DNA from: a virus
Taxonomy: Duplodnaviria; Heunggongvirae; Uroviricota; Caudoviricetes
IMG/VR virus record: IMGVR_UViG_2706794698_000010
DNA length: 4,456 bases
Direction: 5' to 3' (one strand)
The notes beneath the pieces were generated by a model. It made no database searches. It was not told the origin of the DNA and worked only from the letters and a program-made list of their open reading frames with translations. Made by a program: the position numbers and the translations under genes. This document shows, in pieces, positions 104 through 4,456 of this stretch; positions within the stretch are counted from its first letter, which is position 1; every line of letters starts with the position of its first letter.

Positions 104-421
104 CGTTAAAACATCTGCAGATAATGACGTTGACTTGGATACAGATGGATTCAGACAACTGAGGATATCGTGCCCATCCCCTTCTGCCAGCGGTGCGATT
201 ATATTGAGAAAAGCTTCTTATGAATTCGGCAAAAGTATAGGTGTATTTGATTTTGCAAACAATGCATCACCAGCGACGATGACATTTTTGATCCCAATAT
301 ATAAAGATGATGATTTTGATTCAGATACTGTTGGTTTTACATTTGCGTTCAAGATGCCAAGAGGCCAGTTTTTTGTAGATGTAAAAGAAAACGGGAATAT
401 CAGAGCTGGAGTTAATGTTAA
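104..421 (+). CDS. Hypothetical protein fragment, open in frame 3 from the IS1 junction into the first N run; probably the 3' portion of a gene 5'-truncated by IS1. Product unknown.
   Basis: About 106 sense codons with no stop in a roughly 40% GC stretch (the rest of the window is about 55% GC), which is unlikely by chance in AT-rich DNA. No in-frame ATG/GTG near the 5' end; the track's TTG start at 90 lies inside IS1. Uses AGA/AGG/ATA codons. Alternating hydrophobic pattern (VGFTFAFKM, QFFVDVKENGNIRAGVNV) suggests beta-rich structure. No family recognised. Confidence 0.4.
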
Positions 422-1751: not shown

Positions 1752-2830
1752 ATGATACCGTTTTACTTCGGGTTTCCGGTCGCGAATGGGGCGGCTGGAC
1801 ATCCGTCCGTATCAGTGCGGGCATTAACCGTATTGCCCGGGATTTTAATGTTGCCATTACCACCCGCTGGCCCGGAAGCCGGGATTATCAACCCCGGATA
1901 AAAAATGGTGAGCTGGTTGAAGTGCTTATCGGGGATGAGCCTGTGCTCACCGGATATGTGGAGGCACTACCGCTTCGTTATGACGCCAGCAGCGTCAGCA
2001 TGGGAATTGTCGGGCGAAGCAAAACAGCCGATCTGGTTGACTGCTCTGCTTTGCCACTCCAGCAGAGCGGAAAAAACCTGCTCAGAATAGTCAGTGAACT
2101 GGCTGCGCCATTTGGCATCACCGTTGTTGATGCTGGCGTGCCGCAGACAGCGGTGATTGATGCCCAGCCGGAACACGGCGAAACCGTTGCCGATTGTCTT
2201 AACCGGTTACTGGGGCAGGTTCAGACGCTGGCTTATGACGATGAATGCGGGCGACTGGTTCTGGGAAAACCCGGAACAGGTAAAGCGGCGACGGCGCTGG
2301 TGCTGGTGCTGGGAGAGAATATTCTTTCCTGTGACACGGAAAGAAGCATCAGAGAGCGGTTTTCTGAATATCAGGTCAGTGGGCAGCGCCCGGGCAACGA
2401 CGATGATTTTGGTGAGGCCACCATTGCCGCAATACGTCAGACCATTCAGGACAGTGGCGTGACCCGTTATCGCCCTTTGTTGATTCAGCAGTCAGGCACA
2501 GCAACGACAGCAACCTGTAAGGCCCGTTGTGAATTTGAAGCGCGCCAACGGGCTGCGCTTACCCGTGAGACAACATATACGGTTCAGGGCTGGCGGCAGG
2601 GCAGTGGCGCGTTATGGCGTCCGGGGTTATCTGTCATCGTTTTCGACCCGCTGAATAATTTTGATAATGATGAACTGGTGATCGCAGAAGTTACCTATAA
2701 CCAGGACGACCGGGGCACGACGACTGAATTACGGGTTGGCCCGGCAGATGCTTATCTCCCCGAGCCTGTTACCGCCAGGAAGAAAAAAATGTTGAGGAGG
2801 ATTTCTGATGAACGGGTTTTCTCTTCGTAA
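1748..2830 (+). CDS. Mu gpP (gp44)-like baseplate hub / phage tail protein
   Basis: Uninterrupted 360-aa ORF. ATG 1748-1750 overlaps the upstream stop (ATGA). The N-terminus TVLLRVSGREWGGWTSVRI has the pattern I associate with Mu gp44 / late control D-like hub proteins. Size and position between N-like and gp45-like genes fit Mu synteny. Recall-based. Confidence 0.6.
   Translation: MNDTVLLRVSGREWGGWTSVRISAGINRIARDFNVAITTRWPGSRDYQPRIKNGELVEVLIGDEPVLTGYVEALPLRYDASSVSMGIVGRSKTADLVDCSALPLQQSGKNLLRIVSELAAPFGITVVDAGVPQTAVIDAQPEHGETVADCLNRLLGQVQTLAYDDECGRLVLGKPGTGKAATALVLVLGENILSCDTERSIRERFSEYQVSGQRPGNDDDFGEATIAAIRQTIQDSGVTRYRPLLIQQSGTATTATCKARCEFEARQRAALTRETTYTVQGWRQGSGALWRPGLSVIVFDPLNNFDNDELVIAEVTYNQDDRGTTTELRVGPADAYLPEPVTARKKKMLRRISDERVFSS
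2794..2800 (+). promoter_or_regulatory. Shine-Dalgarno sequence (GAGGAGG) for the gp45-like gene, embedded in the 3' end of the gpP-like gene
   Basis: GAGGAGG lies 7 nt upstream of ATG 2808-2810. The genes overlap by 23 bp, indicating translational coupling. Confidence 0.6.
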
Positions 2831-3330
2831 TCTGATTTCCCGGGCTGTCATCACGGCGGTGGATTCCGCCAGAAAGTGTCAGTCTGTAGGGTTGAAAATG
2901 ATAGCCGGAGATCAGAAACAACACGTTGAGCACCTTGAACCTTATGGTTTTACATCTGCCGCACAGAACGGTGCTGAGGGCGTTGCTTTATTTCCGGCGG
3001 GCGATCGTTCTCATGGTGTGGTTGTGGTCGTGGCTGACAGACGTTACCGGCTGAAAGGACTGAAACGTGGGGAAGTGGCGCTTTATGACGATCTGGGANN
3101 NNNNNNNNNNNNNNNNNNNNNNNNNNNNNNNNNNNNNNNNNNNNNNNNNNNNNNNNNNNNNNNNNNNNNNNNNNNNNNNNNNNNNNNNNNNNNNNNNNNN
3201 NNNNNNNNNNNNNNNNNNNNNNNNNNNNNNNNNNNNNNNNNNNNNNNNNNNNNNNNNNNNNNNNNNNNNNNNNNNNNNNNNNNNNNNNNNNNNNNNNNNN
3301 NNNNNNNNNNNNNNNNNNNNNNNNNNNNNN
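2808..3330 (+). CDS. Mu gp45 (Q)-like baseplate assembly protein V / central spike; 3' end approximate (hidden in N run)
   Basis: ATG with strong SD. Visible N-terminal 97 aa (GLKMIAGDQKQHVEHLEPYGFTSAAQNGAEGVALFPAGDRSHGVVVVVADRRY) fits the OB-fold region of gpV/gp45-family spike proteins as I recall them. The stop is not visible; the end coordinate is an estimate. Confidence 0.6.
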
Positions 3331-3367
3331 NNNNNNNNNNNNNNNNNNNNNNNNNNNNNNNNNNNNN
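3099..3367. other. Run of 269 N (unresolved or masked sequence) covering the gp45-like/GP46-like gene junction
   Basis: Direct observation. Confidence 1.
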
Positions 3368-3767
3368 TGTTAACGGGCGACCCGTGTCGACCGGGGCTTC
3401 GATCGACCTTCTGACGCGTGCTGTGATTATTTCGCTTTTTACATGGCGGCGTGCCGGGCGTGATGATGCACCACGGATATTTGGATGGTGGGGGGATACC
3501 TGGCCTGCGGTTCAGAATGATCGCACGGGGTCGCGTTTGTATCTGTTGCGACGCAGCAAGCTGACAAATAAAACCCCGCAGCTTGCCAGAGATTATGTCC
3601 GTGAGGCGCTGGCGTGGATGGTGGAGGATGGTGTTGCTTCCCGTCTTGATATTAACGCTGTCCGGACCGGGACAGACTCGCTGGCACTTGCCATTACCAT
3701 TTACCAGCGTGACGGCAATATTCACAACATTATTTTTGATGATATCTGGAGTGAACTGAATGGCTGA
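3320..3767 (+). CDS. Phage GP46-family baseplate protein (Mu gp46/V-like); 5' end approximate (hidden in N run)
   Basis: Visible 133 aa contain AVIISLFTWRRA, GWWGD, GSRLYLL, REALAWMVEDGVA and LALAITIY, matching the GP46-family pattern I recall (SLFTDRRA...GWWGD...SRLWLL...EALAWL..DGVA). Stop TGA 3765-3767 overlaps the next ATG (ATGGCTGA). Confidence 0.62.
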
Positions 3768-4434
3768 CAGTCAGTTTTATCGCCCCGGCCTCCCGCAACT
3801 TATTTCTATGATCCGGAGCGATTTATTAACCCGCTTTGAGCAGGATACGCTGCTTCGTCGTATGGATGCGGAAGTGTATGCCCGTGTACAGGCTGCAGCC
3901 GTACACACGTTGTACGGGTATATCGATTATCTTGCCAGAAATCTGTTACCGGACGTGTGTGATGAAGACTGGCTGTACCGGCACGCCAGAATCAAACGCT
4001 GCCCGCGAAAAGAAGCGGTGGCAGCCCGGGGATTTGTGCGCTGGGATGGCGTAGAGGGGACGCCGGTATTGCCAGCGGGAACGCAGATCCAGCGTGATAA
4101 TCAGGTGACCTTTACCACGACGGCGACGGTGACCGCAGCCGATGGTCTTCTCCGGGTGCCTGTTGTGGCAGACGAACCGGGATCGGCGGGGAATACGGAT
4201 GATGGTATTGCCATGCAACTGGGAACACCCGTCAGTGGTCTGCCGTCCACAGGGTACGCTGACACCATTACAGACGGTGAAGATATTGAAAATCTGGAAA
4301 TATGGCGTGCCCGCGTTATGGAACGTTATTACTACATTCCACAGGGGGGCGCAGGTAATGACTCCAACTTATTGATAGTGTTTTATGTTCAGATAATGCC
4401 CGATGACTTTGTCATGCAGCTCCACCGATTTTGA
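3760..4434 (+). pseudogene. Baseplate J-like protein (Mu gp47/W-like) truncated by IS1 insertion; native part 3760-4353 (about 198 codons), then 27 IS1-derived codons up to TGA 4432-4434
   Basis: N-terminal region and the ...GEDIENLEIWRARVMERYYYIPQGGAG... segment fit baseplate J-family features (acidic stretch, LR.R, GG motif). The ORF crosses the IS1 boundary at 4353/4354 and ends in the IS1-encoded tail NDSNLLIVFYVQIMPDDFVMQLHRF. Full-length family members are roughly 350-380 aa. Confidence 0.7.
4354..4376. repeat. IS1 terminal inverted repeat (IRR), right copy
   Basis: ggtaatgactccaacttattgat at the insertion boundary inside the baseplate J-like gene. Confidence 0.85.
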
Positions 4435-4455
4435 GAACGACAGCGACTTCCGTCC
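4369..4455 (-). CDS. insB: IS1 transposase InsB (InsAB') C-terminal fragment, partial, on the minus strand
   Basis: Mirror image of the fragment at 2-88. Minus-strand translation ends ...VIGHYLNIKHYQ with stop complementary to 4369-4371. Confidence 0.85.
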   Translation of the reverse strand, partial: GRKSLSFSKSVELHDKVIGHYLNIKHYQ

Positions 4456-4456
4456 C

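Follow-up and report, generated by a model that had tools for sequence, protein, structure and literature searches.

Equivalents of Mu gp47 among the Baseplate_J proteins are gpJ of phage P2 and gp6 of phage T4. In phage Mu, gp47 is the wedge protein BW2, present in two copies per wedge. Its N-terminus takes part in the core three-helix bundle of the wedge, and the remainder of the chain accounts for the trifurcation unit, for the "handshake" between wedges, and for a pin domain located near the hub (PMC11915804). The Shigella sonnei gene described here shares with Mu gp47 the length of its product, 360 residues once reconstructed, as well as its neighbours, gp43-44-45-46 upstream and gp48 downstream. 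Its sequence, however, has diverged from that of Mu gp47 to a phmmer-level match, and the head module of the parent element is of the HK97 type, not of the Mu type. Furthermore, the S. sonnei gene is split after codon 198, leaving a 198-residue fragment extended by a foreign tail of 26 residues.

The closest sequenced phage is the Stx2e-converting phage phiP27 (NC_003356 / AJ298298), which is 97.9% identical in DNA across 1.69 kb in the gpP/gp45 region. Its late genes follow the same order as those of the S. sonnei element, from the sheath to the tail fibres, and include L52, a protein of 360 residues. PhiP27, however, is a complete 42.6-kb phage carrying stx2e, whereas no stx is found in the S. 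sonnei loci read. Compared to phiP27, the S. sonnei element carries, in addition, two IS1 copies, an IS600-like element, an IS4, and an extra AT-rich gene, and is devoid of the capsid-to-terminator genes. Prophages of EIEC-like Escherichia coli, exemplified by those of strains RMDEC465 (locus L001) and FDAARGOS_944 (locus L002), are linked to ipaH and are 97-100% identical to the unmasked parts of the window, that is, the whole stretch of 4,456 nucleotides analysed here (IMG/VR record IMGVR_UViG_2706794698_000010). In both of them the IS1 sites are empty and gp47 is intact, although they carry IS4/IS66-family insertions of their own. Of note, the T3SS effector gene ipaHe is located just past their tail-fibre genes (L001 17475-18987, L002 21275-22916).

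Five IS elements have expanded in Shigella, and none of them is as abundant as IS1; the latter drives pseudogene formation in S. sonnei, where it accounts for the largest share of IS sites (PMC7373316). Prophage regions partly homologous to phiP27 have also been reported in S. sonnei, most of them with IS elements (PMC6128377). The present finding is thus already known in its essence, being an ordinary case of the well-documented IS1 expansion of Shigella, and the ORF concerned has been deposited since the Ss046 genome. The Shigella IS1 pseudogenes documented by Hawkey et al. 2020 (PMC7373316) display the same canonical 768-bp IS1, the same 9-bp duplication, and the same inactivation of the gene. 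The S. sonnei locus does not differ from them in kind, except that the target belongs to a cryptic prophage and not to a metabolic gene. It amounts to one more IS1 pseudogene in an S. sonnei cryptic prophage, with little weight beyond housekeeping.

The window is evidently a slice of a decayed phiP27-like prophage remnant, located at ssrA in S. sonnei. Its features are given below, together with the corresponding positions in the S. sonnei assembly GCA_965230885.1 (locus L003), which is 100% identical to all unmasked parts of the window.

1-103, + strand: IRR-proximal 103 nt of the left IS1 (insA to insB' direction), inside which the window starts (L003 6080-6182)
104-112, unstranded: inner one of the two target-site repeats (CGTTAAAAC) flanking the left IS1, from the comparison of the duplications in L003
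104-421, + strand: small AT-rich gene (phrog_5586) interrupted by the left IS1, present with its 3' part, the end of which lies under a run of N (by comparison with L002)
672-1751, + strand: gene for the DNA circularization protein (Mu gp43/N-like), masked at its start and in its middle (L003 6932-8002)
1748-2830, + strand: baseplate hub gene (Mu gpP/gp44-like), with Pfam GpP-like_1st, Gp44-like_2nd, NMB1110_3rd, and GpP_4th
2808-3098, + strand: Mu gp45-like gene (spike/baseplate assembly V), masked except for its 5' part (Phage_Mu_Gp45, E=6e-27; L003 9059-9592)
3368-3767, + strand: Mu gp46-like wedge gene, start masked (Pfam GP46, E=4e-33; L003 9598-10008)
3760-4434, + strand: ORF of 224 aa, the 5' part of gp47 fused to the IS1 end
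3760-4353, + strand: 5' fragment of the Mu gp47/Baseplate_J wedge gene, codons 1-198 of 360 (Pfam, PHROG, and comparison with L002)
4345-4353, unstranded: inner one of the two target-site repeats (GGGGGCGCA) flanking the right IS1 (L003 10586-10594; repeated at 11363-11371)
4354-4434, + strand: IS1-derived read-through tail, 26 codons and TGA (translation; the sequence is that of the IS1 IRR end)
4354-4456, - strand: IRR-proximal 103 nt of the right IS1, inside which the window ends, with the transposase genes on the - strand (L003 10595-10697)

A previous reading of the window, made from sequence only, had assigned to the ORF starting at 3760 about 198 residues of a baseplate J-like protein. 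Profile searches agree with it, as Pfam Baseplate_J (PF04865) matches residues 69-198 with E=3.5e-24 and 85.9 bits, for a gathering cut-off of 21.1. The match extends over positions 2-134 of the 255 in the profile, and hence does not span the whole domain. Codons 1-198 also match PHROG baseplate families, and the residues that they encode are identical to those of the intact 360-aa protein of L002. In a pairwise alignment with an intact gene, the two sequences are identical up to …CAGGGGGGCGCAG and wholly divergent thereafter. The switch from phage to IS1 DNA takes place at 4353/4354, as that reading had also proposed: from position 4354 onward, the window reads GGTAATGACTCCAACTTATTGATAG…, the IS1 terminal inverted repeat, beginning with GGTAATGACTCC. 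The filled junction is …CAGGGGGGCGCA directly followed by GGTAATGACTCC…, and the empty site reads …CAGGGGGGCGCAGACCCTGATT…. Translation confirms the stop codon, a TGA at 4432-4434, and yields GNDSNLLIVFYVQIMPDDFVMQLHRF as the foreign tail, 26 residues and not the 27 initially counted. The expectation that full-length homologues are much longer is also borne out. Intact gp47 is a gene of 1,083 nt coding for 360 aa in L001 (9393-10475) and L002 (15817-16899), and phiP27 L52 and Mu gp47 are 360 aa long as well.

Using megablast against complete E. coli genomes, 49 were found to be collinear with window 3368-4354 and not beyond. All 49 carry the annotations 'phage GP46 family protein' and 'baseplate J/gp47 family protein' in this stretch. 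The gene context is that of a contractile tail, with a conserved placement: a gp46-like gene precedes gp47, and Phage_Mu_Gp48 comes directly after the gp47 3' fragment in L003. As judged from these sequences, the locus is a disrupted member of the Baseplate_J family, and a pseudogene rather than a functional gene.

An IS1 end delimits the window on either side, positions 4354-4456 being the exact reverse complement of positions 1-103. Both elements are complete in L003: the left IS1 spans positions 5415-6182 (768 bp) and harbors InsA/DDE_Tnp_IS1 genes, and the right one spans positions 10595-11362, again 768 bp. The two copies are identical in sequence and opposite in orientation. Both possess the imperfect terminal inverted repeats GGTGATGCTGCCAACTTACTGAT / GGTAATGACTCCAACTTATTGAT, the insA and insB' genes, and an A6C slippery frameshift site at position 307, and Pfam analysis of their genes returns PF03811, PF12759, and PF03400 (Zn_ribbon_InsA, HTH_Tnp_IS1, and DDE_Tnp_IS1). 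A length of about 768 bp, the terminal repeats, these domains, the A6C site, and a 9-bp direct target duplication, for which IS1 at times makes 8 bp, all identify them as IS1. The left copy is flanked by CGTTAAAAC at L003 5406-5414 and 6183-6191, a perfect duplication of a sequence that is single at the empty site in L002.

The window is unique DNA comprised between two repeat copies, which accounts for where it starts and stops. Contigs of S. sonnei measuring 4.50-4.55 kb carry partial versions of the chimera, and the longest contig measures 2-5 kb in 186 of the 226 index blocks that hold the chimera. An IS1-bounded contig of 4.4-4.6 kb recurs in short-read assemblies of S. sonnei, and should not be mistaken for a separate element.

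The window exhibits the inner junctions only. The outer ones were read from other S. sonnei assemblies, 100% identical to it over its unmasked parts, and megabase-scale chromosomes were found by exact-sequence look-up of the 224-aa chimera. A duplication matching 4345-4353 on the far side of the IS1, which had been proposed as a test, is indeed present: GGGGGCGCA is found on both sides of the right IS1 in L003, the outer copy at 11363-11371. It forms a perfect 9-bp duplication of a sequence that is single in the intact genes of L002 and L001. After the second GGGGGCGCA, L003 continues with GACCCTGATTATG…, as in the intact gene, and the 3' remainder of gp47 is therefore found where it had been suggested to look for it, on the far side of the element. 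The C-terminal half had been presumed missing or displaced; it is displaced and not missing, since the remaining 162 codons (199-360) are intact, 777 bp downstream, in complete S. sonnei chromosomes. This 3' fragment is promoterless and devoid of start signals of its own.

When IS1 and one copy of the duplication are deleted in silico, a frame of 360 codons opens, with R238H as the sole change relative to FDAARGOS_944 (L002). The reconstructed protein matches Baseplate_J over positions 2-255 of 255 (E=2e-54), of which the 3' fragment contributes 136-255. Its residues 37-351 align with residues 35-359 of 9ki1_H ('Baseplate protein gp47'), an experimentally solved Mu gp47 chain of 360 residues, with a phmmer E-value of 4.4e-36. 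Twelve S. sonnei loci were read, complete or nearly so, and all of them display this split structure. Furthermore, many complete S. sonnei chromosomes, assembled independently of one another, share the junction along with the 224-aa product, and the pattern is not due to chance: IS1 interrupts the gene at 4353/4354, and the ORF is a truncated chimera. The phage/IS1 junction is found in none of 5,426 complete E. coli genomes, and the exact 41-nt junction has no match in a collection of species-representative genomes. It is almost certain, because the duplication is perfect and the flanks are collinear with the uninterrupted FDAARGOS_944 prophage, that gp47 was split by a simple IS1 insertion and that nothing was deleted from the gene.

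IS1 can cause deletions of adjacent DNA. The 3' half of gp47 might hence have been lost, together with the downstream tail genes, in a rearrangement rendering the truncation permanent; the window alone, which shows nothing past the IS1 end, would be compatible with such a loss, and IS-associated deletions are seen elsewhere in the remnant. In the complete chromosomes, however, the perfect 9-bp duplication is followed by codons 199-360, and then by the gp48, fibre, assembly, and DUF4376 genes in their ancestral order. The loss is thus very improbable, and is already refuted for the sequenced S. sonnei chromosomes. An assembly artefact, in which a short-read mis-join or a collapsed repeat would have created a chimeric ORF that does not exist in the cell, has an even smaller likelihood. 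It would find some credit in the ends of the window, made on both sides of the same 103-nt repeat as is typical of contigs broken at repeats, and in the size of most ORF-bearing records, the 2-5 kb contigs mentioned above. Such a repeat-bounded contig, however, accounts for the ends of the window and not for the junction, and over 10 megabase-scale chromosomes originating from independent projects show these junctions along with the full IS1 and the duplications.

The geometry of the window, with identical inverted IS1 copies around a segment, also fits a composite transposon, in which the IS1 pair and the 4.25 kb between them would have arrived as a unit with the tail genes as cargo. A single duplication is then expected at the outer ends, whereas the outer flanks, CGTTAAAAC and GGGGGCGCA, differ from each other, and each equals the inner flank of its own copy. 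Moreover, the DNA is collinear with the uninterrupted prophage both inside and outside of the pair. As the origin of the structure, this arrangement is already refuted and has hardly any probability left. The two IS1 copies are evidently independent insertions and do not form a composite transposon, because each has its own, differing duplication. In a reading milder than the decoy hypothesis described below, the inverted identical pair might allow the 4.25 kb of baseplate genes to be flipped or mobilised in one block; an inversion by recombination between the two copies was looked for, and the ancestral orientation is found in 12 out of 12 S. sonnei loci read. Finally, the ORF could represent a Baseplate_J protein naturally ending near residue 200-225, with IS1 lying just downstream of a complete gene. 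PHROG 2103 ('baseplate protein'), a profile of 162 positions, is fully covered by residues 4-166, as expected from such a short protein. The Pfam match, however, halts at profile position 134 of 255, the close relatives, phiP27 L52, and Mu gp47 all reach 360 aa, and the 3' fragment completes the profile. A naturally short homologue is therefore exceedingly unlikely and, on these comparisons, is already refuted.

According to the preferred reading, a simple insertion, the right IS1 transposed into gp47 at codon 198/199, creating the 9-bp target duplication. Translation from the gp47 start would then enter the IS1 end and stop after 26 codons, giving a 224-aa product in which the N-terminal part is preserved, as is roughly one half of the Baseplate_J domain. 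With no full-length gp47, the element would be unable to build the baseplate wedge unaided. Given the role of gp47 in Mu, a protein without residues 199-360 should fail in wedge and baseplate assembly, and the locus is not expected to make tails unaided, because its product does not include these residues. The initial reservation, that tails might still be made if the gene were only insertionally split, does not hold, as the split gene still yields no full-length gp47. Non-viability would also arise from the capsid/connector/terminator deletion, the IS4, the second IS1, the gpP frameshift, and the deletion at the fibre/assembly genes; the order of these decay events, like the loss of function, is one that we infer, whereas the junctions, the duplications, the in-silico restoration of the ORF, and the gene content of the remnant are observed. 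There is also a very slight chance that the 224-aa product, if expressed, could act as a dominant-negative decoy and poison the baseplate assembly of superinfecting phiP27/SfV-type myophages, because it retains the N-terminal region, whose Mu gp47 counterpart enters the three-helix bundle of the wedge core. Should this be true, S. sonnei would have kept the broken gene as an anti-phage factor that arose by accident.

The parent of the element is of a type combining an HK97-type head with a Mu-type tail. In S. sonnei, the order is IS4, a 120-aa fragment of the prohead protease (Peptidase_S78), an IS600-like element, sheath, tube, chaperone, and tape measure. It continues with the AT-rich gene interrupted by IS1, the DNA circularization gene, gpP, gp45, gp46, gp47 interrupted by IS1, gp48, fibre, and assembly protein, and ends with a protein bearing a fibre N-terminal domain, DUF4376, the tmRNA gene (L003 16090-16452), and smpB. 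Compared to FDAARGOS_944, the DNA from the protease to 19 nt upstream of the sheath start is gone. The genes for the capsid, adaptor, closure, and terminator proteins were located in this stretch, and the IS600-like element is found in its place in the complete S. sonnei chromosomes examined. A complete set of head, neck, tail, lysis, and regulation modules is not found in the S. sonnei remnant. The element is predicted to be defective from several independent causes, and is a remnant regardless of gp47. The defect foreseen in the sequence-only reading is thus borne out, with the capsid-to-terminator loss, other IS elements, and further lesions adding to it.

Other differences are observed at the right end of the element. 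A net of about 170 nt is missing at the junction of the fibre and fibre-assembly genes (L003 13170-13205 versus L002 18209-18412). The fibre protein has 346 aa in S. sonnei versus 402 aa, and the assembly protein 123-162 aa versus 181 aa. In the S. sonnei locus (L003 15892-16452), homology ends with DUF4376, followed by the tmRNA gene, and no ipaH is present there. When compared to L003, the locus of CP044151.1 (L008 16200-20675) has an IS-like pair and an integrase-bearing element replacing ssrA-smpB; the site has hence either been rearranged in this strain specifically or received a further insertion.

In databases, the exact 224-aa product is found on 230 contigs, under the names 'putative head assembly protein [Shigella sonnei Ss046]' (Q3YYR0_SHISS) and 'head assembly protein [Shigella sonnei]'. 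In the chromosome of strain 53G (HE616528.1, locus L006), a sequence cited in genomic papers on S. sonnei, the insertion site would lie near position 3,028,320, as estimated from the range of the locus. The name 'head assembly protein' of Q3YYR0_SHISS, SIY37681.1, and others is wrong, the product being a truncated baseplate wedge protein with an IS1 tail; Q3YYR0_SHISS and the related NCBI entries are to be handled as a pseudogene fragment. Prophage predictors that count these tail genes will also overrate the intactness of the prophage.

The rest of the window contains three N-masked runs, 422-671, 1147-1407, and 3099-3367 (250, 261, and 269 N), which stand for 431, 252, and 259 real bases, respectively, in the identical locus L003. 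Coordinates and frames across these runs are not meaningful, because the masked lengths differ from the real ones. An ORF spanning positions 90-1751 (553 aa) was rejected as a gene: it is an artefact that reads through two N-runs of wrong length, joining the IS1 end, the split AT-rich gene, and the DNA circularization gene. In L003, the latter gene spans positions 6611-8002 and possesses a DNA_circ_N domain (PF07157), and it is annotated alike in L001 and L002.

The AT-rich gene hit by the left IS1 is represented by window positions 104-421, which are 100% identical to L002 12001-12318, within a hypothetical CDS (11900-12382, 160 aa). It matches phrog_5586, a family of unknown function, with E=1e-88, and a Pfam search with it returned no match. 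Its GC content is 38%, versus about 54% in its neighbours. The tape-measure gene and the DNA-circularization gene flank it. PhiP27 lacks it, and among 5,426 complete E. coli genomes only 11 possess it. It looks like a moron-type accessory gene.

In the gpP hub gene, the poly-A run at 2783-2789 is A7 in the window versus A8 in L002, and the final codons are frameshifted. With A7, gpP has 360 aa rather than 351, and a 23-nt overlap with gp45 replaces the ATGA overlap. This is a second lesion of the baseplate module, subtler than the first. The same gene harbors, at 2296-2312, a tandem repeat of the GCTGGT hexanucleotide with a variable copy number. L005 has one unit more, as do several further genomes of S. 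sonnei, whereas strain 53G (L006), L008, L002, and L001 have one unit less. These changes keep the frame, with the gain or loss of Leu-Val.
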